IMG/VR virus record: IMGVR_UViG_3300029305_011823
DNA from: a virus
Lineage: Duplodnaviria; Caudoviricetes
Length of the DNA stretch: 64,000 nucleotides
Reading direction: 5' to 3' (one strand)
The position numbers were made by a program, and so were the translations under genes. Below, piece after piece: positions 5,526-40,474 of the stretch; position 1 is the stretch's first letter; every line of letters starts with the position of its first letter. Below the pieces are notes generated by a model, which worked only from the letters and a program-made list of their open reading frames with translations, searched no databases and was not told the origin of the DNA.

Positions 5526-5675
5526 TTAAAAGTTATTATTTTCTTCTTCGTTTTTCTTTTTAATGAAATTTACTTGTTTAAATGTAGGCATCCACGTCTT
5601 ATAATCTGAAATAAATACAAATATAAATAATGCTAAGAAGAACACGTACATGAACTTAGCAAACGAAATATACAT
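5526..5675 (-). CDS. Small single-pass membrane protein (49 aa)
   Basis: Below the cutoff: MYISFAKFMYVFFLALFIFVFISDYKTW...; RBS AGGAGA. Confidence 0.65.
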   Translation of the reverse strand: MYISFAKFMYVFFLALFIFVFISDYKTWMPTFKQVNFIKKKNEEENNNF

Positions 5676-5690
5676 AAACACCATCTCCTA

Positions 5691-9896: not shown

Positions 9897-12800
9897 ATGG
9901 CGAAAAAAGATTCGAATAAAGGTAAAGACATTAAAGACAGAATTAAGAAACAAGTTCCTTCAAATGATTGGTTTCTTAACGTCGGTAAAAGTATGGGATT
10001 TGCAACTCAAGAATTAATTCAAGAGTTAATGCCTAATACATCTAGTACAGTTGACTGGAATAAAAACGTTATTAACATAGCTGATATGGTTCAAGACATT
10101 AGAGATAACAATGGTATCAGAAAAATGTTTGGTAAGCAACTAGGAAATATTCCTGCATTTAAAGTTGCTCAAGAAGGTTGGTCTAATGTTAAAGCCGATT
10201 TTAAATCAGGTAACTTTTATAATAAAAATAGAGCTATGGGTCTAAATGATGACGGTGAATTTAGTTTCGATGACTTTTCATTTGACAATGGTGGTGTTGA
10301 ATTTATAGATGACGATGATAGTGGTGGCGGTGATGAACCTGTTGAGGATTCTTCTGGTGGTGGAAGACCTCCTGTCACTGTTATAAACACAATGCCATTG
10401 GCTAAAGCAATATCTTCAAGTGCTGAAGCTAATGTTAATGCTATAGCATCATTGGGTCAACAACAATTTGCTATGGAATCTGAAAAATTGATGATGAATA
10501 AGCAATCATTTGAAGGCTCAATGAGTGCTTTAAATTCTATCAATGAAAACTTAGCTTTATTAGTTCAATTCAACTCAGATTCAACTGCTAAATATCAAGC
10601 AGCAGCTCTTAAATATTTTGAGCAATCTTTAGAGTTGATGGAAAAACCAGAGGAAGATAAGAAAAAGAAAAATCTTTGGAATCCATTTACTGCAGAGGGT
10701 GGATTAAAACTTGATGAATATGCTGAAGTAGTTAAAGAAAATATTAAAGATATAAAAGACAGTAATATTGCTTTATCTACGATGTATGATATTTTTGATA
10801 ATCCTGAATTGATTAAAGGATTTGCAGATAACCCTATAGGTACACTAATGACCGCAATGGGTAGAGGTGTTATTAACAAAAAATTTAAAGAAGCTAAAGG
10901 TAAGTTAGGTGAACTTGATAAAAACCTTAATATGATCATGCCTGCTTTATTGGCTAGAATAAACACATTTGAAGGTAATCAAGATGATAACCTATTACAA
11001 AATTTAAATAAAGTATTTGGATATAAATACAAGCTTTCTTATGATGTTGATTTAGGCGACTATGAAAAAGGAGCTATTTCTTGGGACGGAGAAAGTAAAA
11101 AAGCACTAGTTGAAGTTATACCTTCTTATTTAAGAAGAATAGAAAGTGTTCTAACTGGTGGGGATGAAAGAATATATAACTACAGTACAGGTAAGTTTGA
11201 TGATATTGCAAGTATTGAGAAGTTTTATAATGATAAATTAGCTGAAAATGAAGTATCTGGATTTACAAATGTACGTTCATATATAAACGATGTTGTAAAT
11301 GAATTAGGATTATCAATTGATGCTAAAGACCAAGTCATGAAAGATTTTAATAACTACTTTAGAGCTATGACTAAACAAGGTTATTTAATACGACATAATG
11401 ACCCAAGAGATTCTATGAAAATGGGTGAGATTGTTGGATATGATAAAGACAGAGAAAAGCTTTTAGGTAGAATACTTGATGAACTTCCTAATCATATAAA
11501 AGCTGAAATGACTACTATGGCTATATCTGACAGTAGAGAAAGAACTAACAACTTTATGGAAGAAGTTAGAGCAAATCCTAATTTATCAGGTTATTCGTAT
11601 TTAAAAAATGACTTAGACAAAGATGGAAAAATGCGTTATACTGCAAGTAAAACACCACTTGCTCTATCACCTGATAAATATGGTTTAAATCAATTAGATT
11701 ACTTACGTGATATACGTTCAGCACTTATAAATGGTATTAGAGTATTTCCTGACCATACTAGAAAAAGTAGAGGAAACCAACCTAATGCTGGCATATTAGC
11801 AAGAGAACGTTTAGAAGAAGATGCCTACGAACAAAGAATCCGTGAAGAAGAAGATGCAAAACAACAAGAAGAACAATACACACAATATAGACGACAAGGT
11901 AGAAGTGTTGCAGAAGCTGCAAATATTCCTGATAGTAACTGGAAGGAAATGTTTAAAGAAGATACACCTATTGATCAAGCAGATTATTTAACAATGATGG
12001 ATAAACTTAATAATAAAGTAAGTGATGTTGTTTATAATATGCTTTATGGTGAAGACAACTATCAAGATAAAGCATTAGAAAAACTTAATAAAATGTATCA
12101 AAAAGGTAAACCTATACTTCAAAATATGAAAGACTTCTTTGGCGATACAATGAAAGCATTTAGATGTTTCTTTACAGGTCAAGGTTATGTAACATCTGAT
12201 GGAGTTAGAGTTGAAGGTGAAGATAGTTTACTAGGAAGTATAAAAACATCTATACTTGGAATAAAAGATAAATTCAGTGAAGCTACTAAAGAAGGAGGAA
12301 TGTTTCAAAATTTCTTCGATGACTTCATGGATGGATTTGATACTTTTAAAACAAGTTTATTTGGTGAAAAGAGATTAACTGAAAATAAAGGTAAAGAAAC
12401 TTTTCAAAATCTAATGAGTAAAGTAAAACAAAGATTACCAAAAGCATTAGGATATGGATTAGCTGGTGGAATGGTAAAAACTGTATTTGCTTCTAATTTA
12501 GGTTTATTAGGAAACTTCTTAATGCCTGGTGGTCCAATAGCATCAGTTTTAATGGGAACTACATTTGGTTTCTTAAAACAATCTGAAACATTTAATCGTT
12601 ATATGTTCGGTGAAAAAGACGAAAACGGTGAAAGAGTTGGAGGATTAATTTCTAAAGCTTGGCAAGATAAATACCAAGAGTATAAAGGAGTTATTGGTAA
12701 AGGTGCTGGTATTGGTATACTAGGTTCTTTATTCTTACCTGGTGGTCCAGTTGCTGGAGCTATAATGGGTATAGCTGGTGGTATAGCTTCTAAAAATGAA

Positions 12801-15800
12801 GCATTCCAAGAATTCTTATATGGTAAAGATTATAAAACTGATGAAAAGAAATCGATGATGAATGGAGTATTTGGTAAAGCATTTAAACAGTTATCAGGAA
12901 GCGATGATCCTAAATTAGCTAAATTCTTAGGTAGTGTTGGTGCAGGTATAGGTGTGGCTCAAGGTGTAGGTTTATTACCTTCATTCTTATTACCTGGTGG
13001 TCCTATAATGGGTGCTATGTTAGGTTTAGCTGGTGGTATAGCTGCTTCATCAAACAAATTCCAAGAATTCCTTTTAGGTGAAAAAGATATAGACGGACAA
13101 CGTCATGGTGGTTTATTAACAAAAGCTGCTAACTGGTTCAGTTTAACTTTTGCTCAACCATTAAAACTAAAATTCACAGAATTTAACGATTTCTTATATG
13201 GAATGTTTAGAAAACATATATTCGATCCTCTAGCTAGATCGTTTGAACCTATAGTACACGGAGTTAAAAACGTTTTCATAAATGCTAAAGATTCACTTGT
13301 TGAAGCATTTACTAGAATAACAAATCCAATAGTTGAGGCTTTTAAAGAAAACATAATTGATCCTATATCAACAGTTGTTAAAAAAGTTATTCTAAATCCT
13401 ATTAAATGGATAATGAAGAAAACATTTGGGTTCTTAACTAAATCTTTAGTTGGACTTATTACAGCTCCTATAAGTATAGTTGGTAGAGCTGCTGATATGT
13501 ATAACTCATACTCTGCTGTAAGACAAGAGAAATTTAGACGTCGTAGAGAATATGATAAAAATACACCTAAAGAAGAAAGAAATTATCACGATCGTAAAAA
13601 AGCTGGAAAACTAACAAGAGAAGAGAAAAAAGAGTTAAGAAAAAATGTTTCATATAGACAAGGTAAAACTTGGGGTGAAAAGAAAAAAGAACAAAAAGAC
13701 GCTTATAAAGAAGACATGGCTAAACGTAAAGATCGTCGTGAAGAAATGAAGCGTCAATTTGAAGAAGATAAAAAATTCGCTAAAGAAAATGGCTATAAAT
13801 ATAGAAGTCAAAAACAAAAAGAAAAAAGAGAAGCTGAGCTTAGAGAAAAAGAAATATGGTTCCAAGAACAACAATTAATGCAAGCTCAAGATACTGATGA
13901 AAAAGTTGAAAAAATTTCAGATAATATTATTAAGTTATCAGATTATCAAAATAATACAACTACTAAATTAGACGTTATAACAAATACAGTTAGAGAAGGT
14001 TTTAATAAATTAACTGAAAAACTTGGACTTTCTGCTCCTTCTGAAGAAACTGTTGAAGAAGATCATATGACTGCAATATATGATTTCTTAGATAGAGAAA
14101 CTGCAAAGGATGAAAATGTAACACTTAAAGAAGCACTTGATGATTTAAAAGGAGAATTTAAAACAGTACTAGGTCATCTTAAAGAAACTGACAAAGTTGA
14201 TACTAGTAGTTCTAAAGGAATAAATCCTAATGATCTTGTTAATATAACAGATGAAGACTTAAATAAAATTTATTCATTCTTAGATAATAAAGTTCAACAA
14301 GATGAAAGTACTAAACTTAAAGGTGCACTTGATGATCTACCAGCAGATTTTAAAGCTATCTTTAAAAATAAAAAATCTGTAACACTTGATACAGGTGATA
14401 ATAAAGTAATAGATTTTAATGCTGTACGTAAGCAATTACGTGATGATGATCAATCACATGCTGATGGATTAGATAAAGTACCTTCAGATGGTTATCTTGC
14501 TGAATTACATGAAGGTGAAATGGTTGTTCCTGAAAAACCAGCTGGAAAACTTAGAAATCTTATGAATAAAGCAGGTAAAGGATTTAGTGGATTAACTGAT
14601 GTATTATCTGAAACTTCTGAAGAAGATATCGACCATAGAGAAGATGACAATGGAATGATCGAAAAATCACTACGTAAAGGTGCAGTTGGATTTGGTCATA
14701 TGTTAGCTAATACTATGCGTGGTATAGGTGGAGCTTTTGGAAAAATTGGTACATTCTTCGGTAAAATGAGTGGAGATGAAAAACGAGACAGAGAAGATAA
14801 TGCAATGCAATTATCTGATATGGAAGCTGATAGATTAAAAGAAATTGAAGATAAAGCACGATATGATCATGCTTCTAGAAAAAATGCAGACTTTATACAA
14901 GAACAAATAGCTGCTGAAAATAAAGAAAAAGCAGATAGAAAATGGAAAGATAGTTTATTAAATGCTATCAAACATCTTGGTGGAATAGCTGCAGCTGGTG
15001 TTGGTGCTGGAATGAATCTATTCGATCTTATGAAAGATGGTATGAAAGGCTTACTAGATAAATTCAGTGGATTAGGTAGTTTACTAGGTTCATTAGCTTT
15101 ACCATTCGGTATTGAATCTCTTATTAAAATGGGAGATGACTATATCAATAGTCCTGAATATAAAGAAGGATATACAGATGTAGATGCTGACGGAGATGGT
15201 GAAGGTGATGAGATATACAACAACTGGAACATACAAAAATGGAGAACTAGACTTTCTGCTAGAAAAGCTTATATAAAACCTTTCCAAATAGCTAAAAAGA
15301 GAATTTACGACCCTCTAAAAGAAGCAGGTGGTAAAGCAGTTAAATCAGTAAAGAATATGGGTAAAAAAGCAAAAACTGTAGGTAGTAAAGCAGTTAATAA
15401 AGTAAAATCAACAAAAGCTTATCAAGCAGTATCTAATAAGTTAACATCATCAAAATTATATAATAAATTCTTTAATAAAGGTGTTACAGAAACTGGTGAT
15501 AATGTTATAGACTTAGCTGCTAAGAGAGCTGCTAAAGAAGGAACTGAATCAGCTACTACAAAAGTATTTAAAGAAACTGCTGAAGGTGGAGCTGGTAAAG
15601 TAATCAATTTCGCAGAACAAAAATTAATGAAGGAAGCTGCTGAATCAGGTACAGGAAAAGCTGTAGGTAAAGTAATTGGTGAAGGTGTTGAAGCTGCTAC
15701 AGAAAATAAAGGATTAATTACTAAAATTGTTAAGTATGCTAAACAAGGAGTTCAATACTTAGCTGACTTAGTTGTTAAAAAATTCCCAGCAGTTGGAAAC

Positions 15801-18800
15801 ATAGCTAGTAAATTACTTAAAGTGGTAGATCCTATATTAACATCACTTATTAAAAATTCAGATTCAATAGTAGCTAAATTTGCTAAGAAAATAGCTGCTA
15901 CATTAGGAAAAGCTACTGCTGGTGCAGCAACTGGATTTGTGTTAGATGCTGTATTTGCAGTTGGAGATTTAGCAACAGGTCTTACTGCAGGAAATGCTGG
16001 TAACTTATTTGGTGTTTCACCTGAAAACGTTGATGGTAGAATGAGAATAATAAGTTCAATATTCCAAGCATTCTTTAATTTTAGTTATATAGCAATAGTT
16101 TCATTAGTTAACGAAATTACTAATGCAATGTTTAATTACAACTTTATCCGTCAATTAGCTATAGCTGTTTATAATCTTACAGGTGGAAAAGCTGAATTTG
16201 GAATGAGGATAACACCTGCAGAAATTGATAAATGTACATCAATAGAAGAAGCTTTACAAAAAATGGATATAACTGATTACGGTCCATTAAAAGATGATAA
16301 TGGAAATTGGAAAGATTTCAGTGCTGTTAAAAATGAAGAACTTGGTGGAGTAATAACTGAAGCTGAACAAATGGAATTAGCAAGATTACAATATAACTTA
16401 GCTAATGATACAAAATTAAGTTCTCAAGGCTGGTTAGATAAAGAATCACAAACTTTTGGAAGTAAAGTGATGACTGGTATTAAGAAAACATTTACTAGAG
16501 ATACAGCACAACAAAAATACAATAAACTTACTAATAAAGCTACTAAGAAAAAAGAAAAGGCTAATGAATATAGAGAAAAAGCTAAAGAATCTAAAACTAT
16601 ATTTGGTAAAGCTTGGAATAATAGTATGGCTTGGTTAAATGATAAATCTGCAGCAAGAGCTGAAAAGAAAGCAGAAAAAACTAAAGTTAAAGCTGCTAAG
16701 AAATTAACTAAAGCACAAGGTAAAGTAGATTATCATACTCAAAAAGCTGAAGAATCAAAAGGTATATTTAAAGCTTATCATAATTGGAGAGCTAATGCTA
16801 ATCAGAAAAAAGTTAAAAGATATACTATGGACGATGGTAAAGTAACTTCTGCTGATGGAGGAACTACTACAGGATCAGCTCCTGTACAAGAAGAAGTTCC
16901 TATATTAAAACCAGAAGAAGTTATACATGGTTTAACAATGGCACCTGGAGAAACTGTACAGGATGAATATGGTAATGTATACGATCATACTGGAAAATGT
17001 ATTTCTTCACCTAACTGGGATCATGCTGGTATGGGTGACGGAGACGATACATTATATGATCAAAATGGAAACCCAGTCGATTCAACAGTCGTAAGAGCTG
17101 ATAAAGATGGTAATTTATACGATGTCAATGGTAATCCTGTAACTAAAGGTAAACCATCTAAAAAGAAATCTGGTAAACTTGCAAAATTATGGGATGGTAC
17201 TAAAAACTTATTTAAAACAGGATCTGCTAAAGTAGGTAAAGGAATTAAAGATGGAGTTACACAAATTGGTAAGGATACTAAAGCATTCTACTCTAACCCA
17301 ATTGCATTTACATTAAATAAATCAAGTGAGTTATTAGATAAAGGATGGAGTAACTTTAAAGCTAACCAAGAACGTAAAAAAGCATTAAAAGAAAAAGCTA
17401 AAGAAGGTATAAAAAAAGGTGCTGGAAAAGTTAAAGACGTTGTTGGTAAAGGCATAGACAAAATTAAAAATAATGAAAAAGTTAAAGAATTTACAGGTAA
17501 TCTTAAAGCAGGATTATCTAAAGGAATTGACGAAGACGATAGTGCAGGAACAAAAGCAGCTAAAGTTGTTAAGAATCTTAATAAAATGATAGCTGACAAA
17601 AAGAAAGAAATGATGGAAGATATCAAGAAAACAGTTACTGAATCTATAAAAAGTATAGGTAAATTATTTAAAGACTTAATAACTAATGTTGGTAAAAAAA
17701 TCGGTGAATTCGGAACTAAGATAAAAGAAGGATTTACAAATGGAATAAAAGCTATTGGAGAAGGATTTAAGAAAGCTGTTAAAGCTGTTGGAGATGGAAT
17801 AACTAATAAAGTAAATGACTTAAGAAATACATTCTCTAAAGAAAATCTTAAAAAGACATTAGAAGAAAAAGTTTCAGAAATTAAAGAAGGTTGGGGTAAC
17901 TTAACAGGTTCATTTACAAAAATATTTGACGATATAGGTAAAAAATTTGATGAATTCAAAAAAGGATTTAGTAATATCAAATTACCTAAATTATCACTTG
18001 ATGCTATAAAAGTATCTTGGCAAACAGTTAAAGATTTCTTCTGGGATTTTGGTAAAGAGATACTTAAAGGTGATGACGGATTTGAATCAGGAGCAAATGT
18101 ACCTTTAAATCAACAATTAAAACCTAAAAACTATGTCTTTGCTGATACTGATAATGATGCATCTGAAGCTGAAGTTCGTAAAGTTACATTAACAGGACTT
18201 AGAGATAAAGGAAATACACACAACTTCCCATACTATGCTCAAGCAGATAGTAGATGGGGTAATGAAAAATTAATGGGTGGTAAATCTATAGGAGATGTTG
18301 GTTGTGGACCTACATCTACAGCAATGGTTATGACACATTTAACAGGTCAACGTATAACACCAGATACAATGGCTAAAGCTGGAGAAGGAATATTACCAGG
18401 ATATACATCTTATAATTACTTCCCAACTGTAGCTCAAAAATTCAAAATGAACTATTCTGAAGCAAATGATGTTAAATCTATAAGAGCTAAATTAATGGCT
18501 GGAGAACCAGTTATATTAGCAGGTACAGATAAATCATTAGATAATTCTACTCCTTATACTACAAAAGGACATATAGTAGTTGCTACAGGTATAAAAGGAG
18601 ATAATGTAGAAATAAACGACCCAAGAGGTCCTGCTTATAGTGGAAGTTATAGATTAAATAATATTATGAAGGGATTAAAACGTGGTATAGTTTTATCTTC
18701 TTCTAAATCAACTAATACAGTAGGATTACCTTCTTCAGGAGTATATAATCCTATAACTGAAATGACTGGTAAATTAGAAACTTCAGGAGATCTACCAACA

Positions 18801-21800
18801 GATGATGGTGTAGTAGAAAATCTTGGTGGAGATGCTGGACAAATTAAACTATGGGAAAAAGTAATAGGATATGCTAAAGCTTTTGAAGGAAAATTAAAAT
18901 ATGTTTACGGAAGTAAAGCAATAGACAATAATGGTATGACAACAGACTGTTCTGGATTTACTAAACACGTAATGGACCGTTGTGGTATTAAAATACCTGC
19001 AGGATCAGCAAACCAAAAAAATGCTGGTACTGGAGTAGATAAATCACAAGCACAAGCAGGTGACTTAATCATATGGAAAGGTCATGCAGGCTTAGTATAT
19101 GACAGTAATAAAAATATGATAGATGCAGGTAGTGGTAGTGTTCCAAAAATCAGATCTTATGATACTAGTTACTGGAAAAGCCGTGGAGATTATAGTATAA
19201 GAAGAGTAATAGATCCTAATAAAATGGTTAGTGCAAAAGTTGATAATTACCATACAGGAATCGGATTTAGTGGTATAGTTGGTTCTCAAGGTGGAGGAGA
19301 TTTATCTGGTGGAGGTCCAACTACAGACGGATCTACAGACGGATCAACTACAGGAGTAACAACAACTTCAGCACCAGCTATAGATGAACTAGGAGTATTT
19401 GCAAAACTTGGAAACATAGGTAAAAACTATTTAGCTTCTATTTATAACGGTAAAGAAGTAGATTTATTCGCTCAACCTGTATCAACAGATACGTCAACAT
19501 CTACAGATGGATCTACTCCTAGTAATGGAAGTACACCTGATATAAGTGGTATATCTGATACTGCTACTGCAGTATGGAAATTCTTTACTGGTAAAGGATA
19601 TTCAAATCATGCTACTGCAGGTATAATGGGTAACTTACAACAAGAATCATCAATGGATCCTACTAAAAAGCAATATGGTGGAGGACCAGGTCGTGGTATA
19701 GCACAATGGACTGTAAGTGAAGGAAGATTTAAAGGACTAGAAGCACATGCTAAAAGCAAAGGAAAAGATTGGACAGATTTACAATCACAACTAGAATGGA
19801 TAGACATGGAATTAGCTGGTAAAGATTCTACAACTGCTAGTAAACTTAAAAAATATGGTGGATTAGACGGATTCAAGAAAGCTACTGACTATAAATGGGC
19901 TGTTGAAGCTTTTGAAAAATCATTTGAAAGAGCAGGAAAACCTAATTACACTAATAGATATAAATACGCACAAAACTATTACGATAAAATGGCAAATGCT
20001 GGTATGGGACCTGCAATGGCTACAAGTGCAGAAGCAGCACCTAGTGATGGAAGTATACCAAATAGCATGAATGGATGGAAATTCTATCAACAAAGTGACA
20101 GTAGATGGGGTGGTAAAGTTGGTAGTAGTACAGTTAGTAGAGGTGGATGTGGACCTACATCTGCAGCTATGATGCTTTCTACTATATTCGGAAAAGAAAT
20201 CAACCCATTAACAATGACAAAATGGGCTCATTCTAATGGAACATGGACTGGAGCAATGCAATGGACTATGCCTAATAAAGTGGCATCTGAATTCGGATTA
20301 GGAATACAAGATTTAGGTTCTAATGCAAGCGGTGCACCATCTAGTACATTAGCTAATGTTAAAGCCGCATTAAAAGCTGGTAAACCAGTTATGTTAACAG
20401 GTAGAGGTACTGGAGCATCTGGAAGTGCTGCACGTACAGATACACCATTTACACCAGGAGGACACGTTGTTCTTGCGGTAGGATTAGATGGTAACGGTAA
20501 TGTTATAATAAACGACCCTAGAGGTGCTGGTAGAACTAAAGCTTATACTGATGAAGGAATAATGAATGTTGGAGTTGGATTAAGAGGAGCTTGGGCATTT
20601 AATCCTGATGGAGGAAAAATACCAAGTTCAATATCAACAGATGGAGATTTCACAGGTGGAGGTACAACTCCTGGAGGAACTACAGATGGATCAACTGGAG
20701 GAACAACAGCTTCAGCACCAGCTATAGATGAATTAGGAGTATTCGCAAAACTTGGAAATATAGGTAAAAACTATTTAGCTTCTATATACAATGGAAAAGA
20801 AGTCGATTTATTCGCTCAACCTGTATCAACAGATACTTCATCATCTTCAAGTGATAGTGGTACTACACCAGGAGGAGATGGATCACCATGGAATGGAACT
20901 AAATATGATTTAAGTAAATATGATATGAGCGGATTATCTAGTACTAAACAAGCACACATAAATAAAATGATACATCCAACATTACACACATATAAATCAC
21001 ATGGTTTATTCCCATCATTAACATTTGCTCAAGCTGCACAAGAATCAGGATGGGGATTAACTTCTGGGTTAGCTACTAAAGGTAATGCTGCATTCGGTAT
21101 AAAAGCAGATAAGAGTTGGACTGGAAAAGTTTATACAGCAAAAACTAGGGAAGTTTATAATGGTAAATCAGTAACAATAACTGATGGATTTAGAGCATAT
21201 GATAACTTAGGAGATAGTATAATTGACAGAGCTAATTTCTTAAAAGCTAATTCAAGATATACTAAAGCTGGTGTATTCAGTGCAACAAGTCCTGAAGAAC
21301 AAGCAAGAGCATTCCAAAAAGCAGGTTATGCTACAGATCCAGGTTATGCTAATTCACTAATAAACTTAATGAATGGATCTAACTTACAACGTTTTGATAA
21401 ACCGAAACCACCAGTAGTAGACAATGCTGGATCTGGTGATGGAAATACTTATTTAGTTGCACCTAAAGAAAACAAACATCTTACAGGAGATGCTGGTAAA
21501 GGTGATGGAAGAGTATCATATTCTAGATCAATCGATGGACCTCCACGTAATAGAGTTGATGCTAAAGCACAAAGAGAACTTGAAGCTATAAACAGAAAAG
21601 TAAACGTTGCATTTAATAATATCAATGCTTCAGATCCTAATGCATATGCAGAAGTATTAAAAATAATATTACAAGAATTACAAGCTATCAATGCTAATAC
21701 AGCTGCAACTGCTGAAGGAGTTGGAGGGATAGAAATAGCTTCAGCTAATGCTCCTGTAAGTGGAGATAATAATCAACACCCAACAACTAAAGAAAGATAT

Positions 21801-21905
21801 CAAGCTAGTAAGAAAAATAAGCAAATAAGTAAACTACAAACTATAAACTCATCAACTGGATATAGTACTGCAAGACAAATTGCAGGATATAAAAAGACAT
21901 ATTAA
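9897..21905 (+). CDS. Tape-measure / tail-associated multi-hydrolase protein (4002 aa)
   Basis: Long helical N-terminus; TMP motif HADGL..VP.DGY.AELHEGE; two C39-like peptidases (Q..W..GCGPTS..GHxV..NDP); NlpC/P60 (DCSGF..GH); tail lysozyme (GNLQQES..GIAQW..FER); GH73 glucosaminidase (QAAQESGWG..FGIKA..YATDP). Confidence 0.88.
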   Translation: MAKKDSNKGKDIKDRIKKQVPSNDWFLNVGKSMGFATQELIQELMPNTSSTVDWNKNVINIADMVQDIRDNNGIRKMFGKQLGNIPAFKVAQEGWSNVKADFKSGNFYNKNRAMGLNDDGEFSFDDFSFDNGGVEFIDDDDSGGGDEPVEDSSGGGRPPVTVINTMPLAKAISSSAEANVNAIASLGQQQFAMESEKLMMNKQSFEGSMSALNSINENLALLVQFNSDSTAKYQAAALKYFEQSLELMEKPEEDKKKKNLWNPFTAEGGLKLDEYAEVVKENIKDIKDSNIALSTMYDIFDNPELIKGFADNPIGTLMTAMGRGVINKKFKEAKGKLGELDKNLNMIMPALLARINTFEGNQDDNLLQNLNKVFGYKYKLSYDVDLGDYEKGAISWDGESKKALVEVIPSYLRRIESVLTGGDERIYNYSTGKFDDIASIEKFYNDKLAENEVSGFTNVRSYINDVVNELGLSIDAKDQVMKDFNNYFRAMTKQGYLIRHNDPRDSMKMGEIVGYDKDREKLLGRILDELPNHIKAEMTTMAISDSRERTNNFMEEVRANPNLSGYSYLKNDLDKDGKMRYTASKTPLALSPDKYGLNQLDYLRDIRSALINGIRVFPDHTRKSRGNQPNAGILARERLEEDAYEQRIREEEDAKQQEEQYTQYRRQGRSVAEAANIPDSNWKEMFKEDTPIDQADYLTMMDKLNNKVSDVVYNMLYGEDNYQDKALEKLNKMYQKGKPILQNMKDFFGDTMKAFRCFFTGQGYVTSDGVRVEGEDSLLGSIKTSILGIKDKFSEATKEGGMFQNFFDDFMDGFDTFKTSLFGEKRLTENKGKETFQNLMSKVKQRLPKALGYGLAGGMVKTVFASNLGLLGNFLMPGGPIASVLMGTTFGFLKQSETFNRYMFGEKDENGERVGGLISKAWQDKYQEYKGVIGKGAGIGILGSLFLPGGPVAGAIMGIAGGIASKNEAFQEFLYGKDYKTDEKKSMMNGVFGKAFKQLSGSDDPKLAKFLGSVGAGIGVAQGVGLLPSFLLPGGPIMGAMLGLAGGIAASSNKFQEFLLGEKDIDGQRHGGLLTKAANWFSLTFAQPLKLKFTEFNDFLYGMFRKHIFDPLARSFEPIVHGVKNVFINAKDSLVEAFTRITNPIVEAFKENIIDPISTVVKKVILNPIKWIMKKTFGFLTKSLVGLITAPISIVGRAADMYNSYSAVRQEKFRRRREYDKNTPKEERNYHDRKKAGKLTREEKKELRKNVSYRQGKTWGEKKKEQKDAYKEDMAKRKDRREEMKRQFEEDKKFAKENGYKYRSQKQKEKREAELREKEIWFQEQQLMQAQDTDEKVEKISDNIIKLSDYQNNTTTKLDVITNTVREGFNKLTEKLGLSAPSEETVEEDHMTAIYDFLDRETAKDENVTLKEALDDLKGEFKTVLGHLKETDKVDTSSSKGINPNDLVNITDEDLNKIYSFLDNKVQQDESTKLKGALDDLPADFKAIFKNKKSVTLDTGDNKVIDFNAVRKQLRDDDQSHADGLDKVPSDGYLAELHEGEMVVPEKPAGKLRNLMNKAGKGFSGLTDVLSETSEEDIDHREDDNGMIEKSLRKGAVGFGHMLANTMRGIGGAFGKIGTFFGKMSGDEKRDREDNAMQLSDMEADRLKEIEDKARYDHASRKNADFIQEQIAAENKEKADRKWKDSLLNAIKHLGGIAAAGVGAGMNLFDLMKDGMKGLLDKFSGLGSLLGSLALPFGIESLIKMGDDYINSPEYKEGYTDVDADGDGEGDEIYNNWNIQKWRTRLSARKAYIKPFQIAKKRIYDPLKEAGGKAVKSVKNMGKKAKTVGSKAVNKVKSTKAYQAVSNKLTSSKLYNKFFNKGVTETGDNVIDLAAKRAAKEGTESATTKVFKETAEGGAGKVINFAEQKLMKEAAESGTGKAVGKVIGEGVEAATENKGLITKIVKYAKQGVQYLADLVVKKFPAVGNIASKLLKVVDPILTSLIKNSDSIVAKFAKKIAATLGKATAGAATGFVLDAVFAVGDLATGLTAGNAGNLFGVSPENVDGRMRIISSIFQAFFNFSYIAIVSLVNEITNAMFNYNFIRQLAIAVYNLTGGKAEFGMRITPAEIDKCTSIEEALQKMDITDYGPLKDDNGNWKDFSAVKNEELGGVITEAEQMELARLQYNLANDTKLSSQGWLDKESQTFGSKVMTGIKKTFTRDTAQQKYNKLTNKATKKKEKANEYREKAKESKTIFGKAWNNSMAWLNDKSAARAEKKAEKTKVKAAKKLTKAQGKVDYHTQKAEESKGIFKAYHNWRANANQKKVKRYTMDDGKVTSADGGTTTGSAPVQEEVPILKPEEVIHGLTMAPGETVQDEYGNVYDHTGKCISSPNWDHAGMGDGDDTLYDQNGNPVDSTVVRADKDGNLYDVNGNPVTKGKPSKKKSGKLAKLWDGTKNLFKTGSAKVGKGIKDGVTQIGKDTKAFYSNPIAFTLNKSSELLDKGWSNFKANQERKKALKEKAKEGIKKGAGKVKDVVGKGIDKIKNNEKVKEFTGNLKAGLSKGIDEDDSAGTKAAKVVKNLNKMIADKKKEMMEDIKKTVTESIKSIGKLFKDLITNVGKKIGEFGTKIKEGFTNGIKAIGEGFKKAVKAVGDGITNKVNDLRNTFSKENLKKTLEEKVSEIKEGWGNLTGSFTKIFDDIGKKFDEFKKGFSNIKLPKLSLDAIKVSWQTVKDFFWDFGKEILKGDDGFESGANVPLNQQLKPKNYVFADTDNDASEAEVRKVTLTGLRDKGNTHNFPYYAQADSRWGNEKLMGGKSIGDVGCGPTSTAMVMTHLTGQRITPDTMAKAGEGILPGYTSYNYFPTVAQKFKMNYSEANDVKSIRAKLMAGEPVILAGTDKSLDNSTPYTTKGHIVVATGIKGDNVEINDPRGPAYSGSYRLNNIMKGLKRGIVLSSSKSTNTVGLPSSGVYNPITEMTGKLETSGDLPTDDGVVENLGGDAGQIKLWEKVIGYAKAFEGKLKYVYGSKAIDNNGMTTDCSGFTKHVMDRCGIKIPAGSANQKNAGTGVDKSQAQAGDLIIWKGHAGLVYDSNKNMIDAGSGSVPKIRSYDTSYWKSRGDYSIRRVIDPNKMVSAKVDNYHTGIGFSGIVGSQGGGDLSGGGPTTDGSTDGSTTGVTTTSAPAIDELGVFAKLGNIGKNYLASIYNGKEVDLFAQPVSTDTSTSTDGSTPSNGSTPDISGISDTATAVWKFFTGKGYSNHATAGIMGNLQQESSMDPTKKQYGGGPGRGIAQWTVSEGRFKGLEAHAKSKGKDWTDLQSQLEWIDMELAGKDSTTASKLKKYGGLDGFKKATDYKWAVEAFEKSFERAGKPNYTNRYKYAQNYYDKMANAGMGPAMATSAEAAPSDGSIPNSMNGWKFYQQSDSRWGGKVGSSTVSRGGCGPTSAAMMLSTIFGKEINPLTMTKWAHSNGTWTGAMQWTMPNKVASEFGLGIQDLGSNASGAPSSTLANVKAALKAGKPVMLTGRGTGASGSAARTDTPFTPGGHVVLAVGLDGNGNVIINDPRGAGRTKAYTDEGIMNVGVGLRGAWAFNPDGGKIPSSISTDGDFTGGGTTPGGTTDGSTGGTTASAPAIDELGVFAKLGNIGKNYLASIYNGKEVDLFAQPVSTDTSSSSSDSGTTPGGDGSPWNGTKYDLSKYDMSGLSSTKQAHINKMIHPTLHTYKSHGLFPSLTFAQAAQESGWGLTSGLATKGNAAFGIKADKSWTGKVYTAKTREVYNGKSVTITDGFRAYDNLGDSIIDRANFLKANSRYTKAGVFSATSPEEQARAFQKAGYATDPGYANSLINLMNGSNLQRFDKPKPPVVDNAGSGDGNTYLVAPKENKHLTGDAGKGDGRVSYSRSIDGPPRNRVDAKAQRELEAINRKVNVAFNNINASDPNAYAEVLKIILQELQAINANTAATAEGVGGIEIASANAPVSGDNNQHPTTKERYQASKKNKQISKLQTINSSTGYSTARQIAGYKKTY
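19368..19496 (+). repeat. Intragenic ~129-nt repeat, copy 1
   Basis: Encodes SAPAIDELGVFAKLGNIGKNYLASIYNGKEVDLFAQPVSTDTS, identical in protein to copy 2. Confidence 0.9.
20712..20840 (+). repeat. Intragenic ~129-nt repeat, copy 2
   Basis: Same 43-aa peptide with synonymous differences only. Confidence 0.9.
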
Positions 21906-40108: not shown

Positions 40109-40311
40109 TATATTTCACCTCTTTCTTTTAATTCTCTAAAAATTCTTTCATCGTCAAGTTTATCTATTAATATAACCATTTCTATAAACTCTTCGTTATC
40201 CATATTGTTATATAACCAATTATTTATATTTATAGGACATCTAGCCTTTAATTCGTCCATATCGTTAGCTCCAAATAATCCCATTAATAAATTTATTTTT
40301 TCTTCATTCAT
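40108..40311 (-). CDS. Hypothetical protein
   Basis: 67-aa ORF with RBS; late promoter at 40338-40349. Confidence 0.7.
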   Translation of the reverse strand: MNEEKINLLMGLFGANDMDELKARCPININNWLYNNMDNEEFIEMVILIDKLDDERIFRELKERGEI

Positions 40312-40360
40312 TATAAAATTACTCCTTTCAATTATACTAATTATTTGTTAATTTAATGAT

Positions 40361-40433
40361 AAAAATATATATGGATAACCTCAAGGTTATCCATATATAA
40401 AAATATATTATAGGAGATGATTATTATGTATTT
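40361..40433 (-). ncRNA. Candidate small RNA (about 70 nt) with an anti-RBS 5' seed
   Basis: Perfect late promoter at 40433-40444, no ORF, terminator hairpin 40366-40399 with T tract. Confidence 0.5.
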
Positions 40434-40474
40434 ACTTAATTGTTATTGATATAATTTTCTATATACTCAGAAAA

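Follow-up and report, generated by a model that had tools for sequence, protein, structure and literature searches.

Several trans-acting sRNAs of low-GC Gram-positive bacteria, namely RsaE/RoxS, S. aureus RNAIII and LhrC, use C/U-rich seeds that occlude Shine-Dalgarno (SD) sites. For jumbo phages of the AR9/PBS1 type, we know of no described regulatory RNA, and gene expression is explained by two phage polymerases and two promoter classes. The c4 RNA of P1/P7 is a phage antisense RNA that pairs in trans around the ribosome-binding site and blocks translation of phage mRNA (PMC12197685). The late promoters of AR9, mapped via differential RNA-seq and primer extension, have the consensus AACA-(6N)-T(A/G), with transcription starting at the last base, and the early promoters have the consensus AAATATATATTAT-(6N)-G (PMC5312081, PMC7598289). 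The terms 'small RNA' and 'noncoding' are absent from the AR9 transcription paper, and only 7 late promoters are reported to drive antisense transcription (PMC5312081).

The window analysed here is a stretch of 64,000 nt from an uncultured jumbo phage of the gut. It is AT-rich (28.5 % GC), the closest relatives in IMG/VR are contigs of 203-228 kb, and blastn against INPHARED gave no match to any cultured phage. Its largest gene is a single 4002-aa ORF (9897-21905, plus strand). The unit of interest sits in the largest non-coding gap of its region, 40312-40701, which is flanked by minus-strand genes for proteins of 230 aa (upstream) and 67 aa (downstream). Pfam, PHROGs and PDB sequence searches were silent for both proteins. 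The features of the unit and its immediate surroundings are as follows.

40660-40697, minus strand: terminator of the upstream 230-aa gene, separating that gene from the non-coding cassette
40444-40433, minus strand: late promoter motif AACAATTAAGTA, AR9-type AACA-N6-TA (non-virion RNA polymerase)
40422-40432, minus strand: 5′ spacer from the start to the seed, variable, 10-23 nt in orthologs
40410-40421, minus strand: seed AUCAUCUCCUAU, anti-SD-like, invariant, predicted to be single-stranded
40361-40399, minus strand: intrinsic terminator, with the hairpin at 40399-40366 and the U run at 40365-40361
40338-40349, minus strand: second AACA-N6-TA motif, AACAAATAATTA, 27 nt ahead of the 67-aa gene

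With moderate confidence, we read 40361-40444 (minus strand) from its sequence as most likely a gene for a late small RNA with an anti-SD-like seed, carried by a phage of the AR9/PBS1 type. The initial annotation of this DNA had listed a late promoter at 40433-40444 (minus strand), about 70 nt with no ORF, and a hairpin of about 15 bp with a T tract. All of these are present: the promoter sequence is as claimed, the stretch that follows is about 73 nt and contains only micro-ORFs, and the hairpin has 15 bp and a loop of 4 and is followed by TTTTT. The predicted transcription start is the last A of AACAATTAAGTA, at 40433 (minus strand), and the predicted 5′ end of the RNA (40433-40411) is AAAUACAUAAUAAUCAUCUCCUA. 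Between the promoter and the hairpin lie 34 nt that are predicted to be unstructured. The terminator was also found by a scan (4 sites against 0.1 expected in shuffled sequences), and the 73-nt RNA has a predicted fold of -19.5 kcal/mol (z = -4.45). The 3′ tail of 16S rRNA is AUCACCUCCUUU, and the seed matches it at 10 of 12 positions. The same annotation had proposed a late sRNA that silences translation in trans. The promoter-driven, ORF-free unit and the exposed seed complementary to ribosome-binding sites stand, but the headline target, a 49-aa membrane-peptide gene considered below, is unsupported.

No Rfam family reached the gathering score anywhere in the 64-kb window, and with E values up to 10 the region 40250-40760 gave only chance-level matches. 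By these searches, the unit belongs to no described RNA family. It resembles RsaE/RoxS, RNAIII and LhrC in being small, in having its own promoter and an intrinsic terminator, and in its unpaired, CUCC-containing seed, and by analogy the mode of action may be the same. However, it has no sequence or structure homology to them in Rfam, it is phage-encoded and predicted to be transcribed by a phage polymerase, its single seed is in the 5′ tail and not in loops, and its targets are candidates. With c4, it shares being a phage-encoded RNA and, putatively, pairing in trans around the ribosome-binding site of a phage mRNA. In contrast to the unit, c4 comes from temperate phages, is processed from a longer transcript, has its seeds in loops and serves antirepressor control (PMC12197685), and the two are unrelated in sequence (no Rfam match).

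The promoter motif class is concentrated ahead of genes. Intergenic DNA makes up 9.5 % of the window and contains 27 of the 121 matches to AACA-N6-TA, and nearly all of these 27 have a gene start on the same strand 27-46 nt ahead. Over four genomes, the motif is correctly placed for 157 genes. When scored with a position weight matrix (PWM) derived from 148 gene-proximal motif sites in the four genomes, the site at 40444 is at the 72nd percentile of those sites, and its score exceeds that of essentially all of the 759 matches in coding sequence. The late units of AR9 share with the window phage both this motif and its distance from gene starts. Distant homologues of the RNA polymerase subunits are also present, though protein identity is only about 21 %: the 503-aa protein encoded at 58089-59600 matches PHROG 25005 'RNA polymerase' and was found by tblastn to be a distant homologue (21 % identity) of an AR9/PBS1 polymerase subunit, and PF00562 (RNA polymerase beta-like gene) was found in the relative G001. 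On this evidence, the promoter prediction at 40444 is well founded. A sigma-70-type promoter for the unit was considered and rejected, as a consensus scan found fewer sites than in shuffled sequences. One difference from AR9 is the unit itself, as no small non-coding RNA is described in that phage.

A long AT-rich early motif is likewise common to AR9 and the window phage. The motif GTGTAAAAAGGTnAnATTTCAATnCTATATTATATAGGTGAA recurs five times in the window (9784, 37989, 41430, 41616 and 59636, all minus strand) and ends in TATATTAT-ATAGGT-G, where TATATTAT-N6-G matches the AR9 early consensus. The 230-aa gene is preceded by two copies of the early motif and by the late motif, a layout that is the one described for the continuously expressed genes of AR9.

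Nine further versions of the locus were recovered via searches with the neighbouring proteins, and with the window these make up a set of 10 distinct lineages. The non-coding stretch is always found just upstream of either the 67-aa gene or a 124-aa gene of DNA-binding type (for the 124-aa protein Pfam is silent and the only family match is PHROG 26484), and this position relative to the downstream gene holds in relatives despite extra genes inserted further upstream. Among the 10 orthologs, column identity is 94 % in the promoter block and 94 % in the seed block, compared with 37 % in the spacer before the seed and 36 % in the spacer after it, and the lengths of the spacers vary. The promoter block varies only at the N6 positions, with the exception of one C>T change in L005 (G001/G002), which has AATA in place of AACA. 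Only two substitutions, C>U and A>G, are found in the seed across the 10 lineages, and both preserve pairing to AGGAGAUGAU via G.U. All 10 terminators have perfect stems of 14-19 bp that differ in sequence and are followed by a U run, with compensatory changes in 9 of the 16 pairs of the consensus fold. The predicted RNAs are 65-89 nt long in all 10 orthologs and have the seed in the single-stranded 5′ part, with an unpaired probability of 0.69-0.99 in the short RNAs. No conserved ORF or peptide was found on either strand in the 10 orthologs. In 10/10, the terminator is separated from the next gene by a second AACA-N6-TA motif, with 86 % column identity. This pattern is strong evidence, at the level of sequence, of selection on promoter, seed and terminator alike, and, as the unit is conserved in 10 lineages, the unit itself is more than a chance arrangement. 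A collection-wide search for the promoter plus the seed gave more than 118 matches, mostly attributable to chance. Among the 80 loci examined (L047-L126), a hairpin and T run were found only in one already known relative.

In relatives, the slot between the 230-aa gene and the cassette contains one to four small unrelated genes (L001, 3742-4571; L002, 3735-4298), while in the window (40640-40701) it contains none. Judging from these comparisons, genes are gained and lost especially often in this slot 5′ of the cassette.

The unit has its own promoter and terminator and is free of ORFs. A larger non-coding cassette, missed in the initial annotation, has the unit as its 3′ module. The additional elements of the cassette are as follows.

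40520-40599, minus strand: three-way-junction (TWJ) RNA domain, in which P1 encloses hairpins P2 and P3
40461-40512, minus strand: long hairpin P4, in which the conserved AGGAAG pairs with UUCUGAG

Together these form a structured domain of about 140 nt (40461-40599, minus strand) that has no Rfam match and 2-4 paralogs per genome. In P1, AACAACUUCUU pairs with AAGAAGUUGUU. When 16 copies were aligned, the TWJ pairing was satisfied in 90 % of cells, compared with 33-49 % when the partners were slid. Double changes were found in 5 of the 7 pairs of P3, a single pair of P1 covaries (AU in 8 copies and CG in 7), and the apical stem of P4 covaries (GTCCAT/ATGGAC, GTTCAT/ATGAAC, GTTCAAT/ATTGAAC). 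A U run after P4 is found only in the window copy. The possibility of a small ORF over AGGAAG/P4 (frames of 24 aa and 22 aa) was rejected, as the substitutions track the hairpin covariation and not codons. G001 contains four copies, G003 three and G004 two, located as follows.

G001: 45028 (minus strand), 89855 (minus strand), 132753 (plus strand) and 178966 (plus strand)
G003: 22469 (plus strand), 67905 (plus strand) and 173285 (minus strand)
G004: 8337 (plus strand) and 59787 (plus strand)

The copies are of three types. Type 1, the window kind, has the internal late promoter. In type 2 (G003 173285, minus strand; G001 45028, minus strand; G001 178966, plus strand), P4 is followed directly by CCUCCC, ACUCCU or ACUCCCU and a terminator, with no promoter. 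In type 3, P4 is followed by an early promoter and a gene. Every copy is preceded by a terminator and a conserved ATTGTT-N17-TAtAAA block, which in the window is at 40625-40651 (minus strand), about 45 nt upstream of P1. This block is neither the late nor the early phage motif and its resemblance to sigma-A promoters is loose. It may represent a third promoter class. We note also that the 5′ arm of P1, AACAACTTCTTA (40585-40596, minus strand), matches AACA-N6-TA in 16/16 copies, and that in copies of the CTTATT type the opposite strand of the P1 3′ arm matches as well, so that two promoter-like motifs face each other. AACAACTTCTTA may be a promoter, a helix or both.

The cassette raises the question of which transcript the seed belongs to. 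The seed and terminator could form the 3′ end of a single long structured RNA, about 260-290 nt in length, that starts upstream of P1, in which case the AACA-N6-TA block would be only an RNA sequence element or a minor internal promoter, and the seed could still base-pair, or bind a protein or the ribosome. We consider this possible, though less likely than the small RNA gene. The covariation in P1 suggests that its 5′ arm is transcribed, and the promoter-like ATTGTT-N17-TAtAAA is conserved upstream of P1 in all copies. As P4 lacks a U run in most orthologs, transcripts from upstream should reach the terminator at 40361-40399, so that 40361 would be the 3′ end of a long read-through RNA as well. 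In addition, the three type 2 paralogs have the structured domain, the anti-SD tail and the terminator with no AACA motif between them, and the presence of this tail in promoterless paralogs means that it can belong to a long RNA and may act mainly there. However, the AACA-N6-TA block is one of only two conserved sequence islands in the tail, it varies only at the N6 positions as a promoter would (apart from the C>T in L005), and its PWM score is that of a good promoter. P4 and the seed are 60-80 nt apart, compared with 10-25 nt for the paralogs, which would fit the insertion of a segment carrying a promoter, and in the window P4 does have a U run after it. This explanation and the small RNA gene that we prefer overlap and both can be true; short and long forms of the RNA probably coexist. 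In the long RNA, no conserved internal partner for the seed was found, and pairing of the seed in cis with AGGAAG or with the downstream SD was rejected, because the predicted partners differ in every ortholog. A related explanation, that the unit is a cis-acting attenuator or leader of the downstream DNA-binding-protein operon with the conserved sequence serving as a factor binding site, appears very unlikely to us. In such an arrangement, as at lambda PR'-tR', transcription from the late promoter would end early and yield a short RNA except when an antiterminator intervenes. The location of the cassette, which in the orthologs is always directly followed by the 67-aa and/or 124-aa genes, in the order promoter, short RNA, terminator, gene, would suit this. 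Against this, the second AACA-N6-TA motif between terminator and gene in all 10 orthologs makes read-through unnecessary. On its sequence and position, AACAAATAATTA is the 67-aa gene's own promoter, so the upstream unit is not simply the leader of that gene. Furthermore, the seed is outside the terminator stem and cannot form an antiterminator, its pairing with the SD of the downstream gene is limited to a 5-nt core, and paralogous cassettes precede unrelated genes. With a second promoter after the terminator, no conserved alternative pairing and no Rfam match, the locus does not look like a riboswitch or attenuator.

Two further explanations place the function elsewhere. That the plus strand is what matters, whether as a ribosome-binding site with the micro-ORF MYLLNCY, as an early promoter (TATATTATA at 40404-40412) or as the decayed start of a gp25-like gene, is barely credible. 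The plus strand does read TAGGAGATGATTATTATG, a good SD followed by ATG, shares 14 nt in the same orientation with the translation initiation region (TIR; ribosome-binding site plus start codon) of the gp25-like gene described below, and has a 9-mer in common with the early-promoter motif of the phage. However, the relatives have frames of 6 to about 20 residues with differing sequences, or no start, and the MYLLNCY peptide, put forward earlier as an alternative product, is not conserved. The plus-strand early promoter was also rejected, as only the 9-mer is shared with the early motif; its flanks are unlike GTGTAAAAAGGTnAnATTTCAATnCTATATTATATAGGTGAA and relatives have lost it. Two blocks of 94 % identity together with a covarying minus-strand terminator would not be expected to persist in a decaying remnant. 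The other explanation, advanced in the initial annotation as a dispersed type I toxin-antitoxin or lysis-timing switch, would make the unit the antitoxin RNA of the following gene.

5526-5675, minus strand: gene for a 49-aa hydrophobic peptide, with its TIR at 5668-5690

The complementarity is real: 19 of 23 positions at 5690-5668 (minus strand) form Watson-Crick pairs, with one additional G.U, exactly as had been claimed. At -27.2 kcal/mol it is the best duplex in the window, made up of 12 uninterrupted pairs at the SD and a further 8 at the start codon, and the peptide is small and hydrophobic, with no family match in Pfam, PHROGs or PDB sequence searches. However, the complementarity is lost in the relatives that have a homologue, in which the TIR ranks 8/54 (G004) and 75/152 (G003) for pairing, no homologue was found in G001, and the gene is 35 kb from the unit. 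Loss of the site in relatives leaves the toxin-antitoxin or lysis-timing idea unsupported, and the locus has neither the conserved complementarity nor the overlapping or adjacent genes of a type I system. Controls also come close in energy. Shuffled RNAs never reach the observed duplexes, which had been the comparison suggested, but the seed contains an anti-SD core and shuffled controls are therefore the wrong null. The null we prefer, the antisense of each real TIR against the other TIRs, does reach them: 5.8 % of these controls attain the best score (-27.2, 49-aa gene) and 44 % attain the second (-21.8, gp25-like gene). We regard the antitoxin explanation as highly improbable.

For the preferred small RNA gene, the question is then which messages the seed may address. 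The best conserved candidate is the following.

47465-47893, plus strand: gp25-like baseplate gene, candidate target, with SD region AGGAGAUGAUUAUU at 47451-47464

The exact 14-nt complement AGGAGATGATTATT at 47451-47464 was correctly reported in the initial annotation and is the sole such match in the window. The 10-nt core AGGAGAUGAU is retained in the gp25-like ribosome-binding site in 6/6 lineages. Expressed as the perfect complement of the seed core, AGGAGATGAT is present in the gp25-like TIR of each of the six lineages for which the sequence of both loci is readable, and it is carried by only 1-3 TIRs per genome. In every lineage examined, the gp25-like gene is about 7 kb from the RNA. 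When 24 ortholog sets were compared, no TIR had an invariant block as long as that of this gene (12 nt, compared with a median of 8), and in L165 the match reaches 14 nt via an extension different from that in the window. However, TIRs able to pair with the seed over at least 10 nt, with G.U allowed, amount to 4-6 % of all TIRs, and the claim of a specific target is only partly supported. A perfect 10-nt match is roughly what is expected by chance per 200-kb genome, and the top-ranked targets differ among the four genomes. Covariation of seed and target had been proposed as a check, and cognate gp25-like pairs do score better than non-cognate pairs (permutation p of about 0.04), but the six lineages are non-independent. 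IMG/VR contributed only the same four lineages to the target test, and the longer contigs for L013 and L016 end short of the gp25-like gene. We consider the evidence for the gp25-like leader as the best conserved candidate target to be suggestive.

The gp25-like identity of the 47465-47893 product is weakly supported. Pfam, PHROGs and PDB sequence searches were silent, and weak fold matches were to the KP1 baseplate cup, 2ia7 and T4 gp25 (E 0.02-0.04, TM about 0.5). Ahead of the operon (47340-47464, plus strand) is TACAATATTATA, which differs from the late motif at one base and is conserved in this form in G004.

The leader of a 276-aa gene (43092-43922, minus strand; TIR at about 43923-43945) is another conserved candidate target, though a weaker one. 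This leader, AAAUAGGAGGUGU, pairs over 10 nt with the seed, including one G.U, and the pairing is kept in the G003 and G004 orthologs. The 276-aa protein gave no match in Pfam, PHROGs or PDB sequence searches. A role in global shut-off of early genes was rejected, as genes behind early and late promoters showed no difference in predicted seed pairing (Mann-Whitney p = 0.60).

Under the small RNA reading, the phage non-virion RNA polymerase would start at the A of AACAATTAAGTA (40433) late in infection and stop at the hairpin and U run (about 40361-40365), and the product would be an RNA about 70-73 nt long. Its first 34 nt at the 5′ end would be unstructured and would display the 12-nt seed AUCAUCUCCUAU, resembling the 16S anti-SD tail. 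The seed would pair with mRNAs whose SD region is AGGAG(A/G)UGAU, and this putative pairing would cover the ribosome-binding site and lower translation. The gp25-like leader would be the candidate kept in every lineage examined, and a longer read-through RNA from upstream probably carries the same seed.

A broader version of this reading is that the cassettes form a modular RNA system, with a duplicated three-way-junction scaffold, exchangeable anti-SD tails, targeting of private SDs and an active short form. We think this unlikely. In such a system, the tails UCAUCUCCUAU, CCUCCC, ACUCCU and ACUCCCU would imitate the 3′ end of 16S rRNA with small changes, and the tail in the window would pair perfectly with a 'private' SD variant, AGGAGAUGAU, that mismatches the ribosome. 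The phage could thereby pick out a few messages, for example that of the gp25-like baseplate gene that starts sheath assembly, and set how these are translated late in infection. The free and active version would be the short form transcribed from the late promoter inside the cassette.

More generally, a match between an anti-SD-like sequence and a ribosome-binding site within one genome is weak evidence unless it is checked in relatives. Here, the comparison yields a concrete and testable pair, the RNA of the unit and the leader of the baseplate gene. Neither the unit nor the upstream structured domain matches an Rfam family, and both could be curated as new families. If the reading is correct, a conserved RNA that is made by a phage polymerase and displays the docking sequence of the ribosome would add a layer of translational control to gene expression in these phages.
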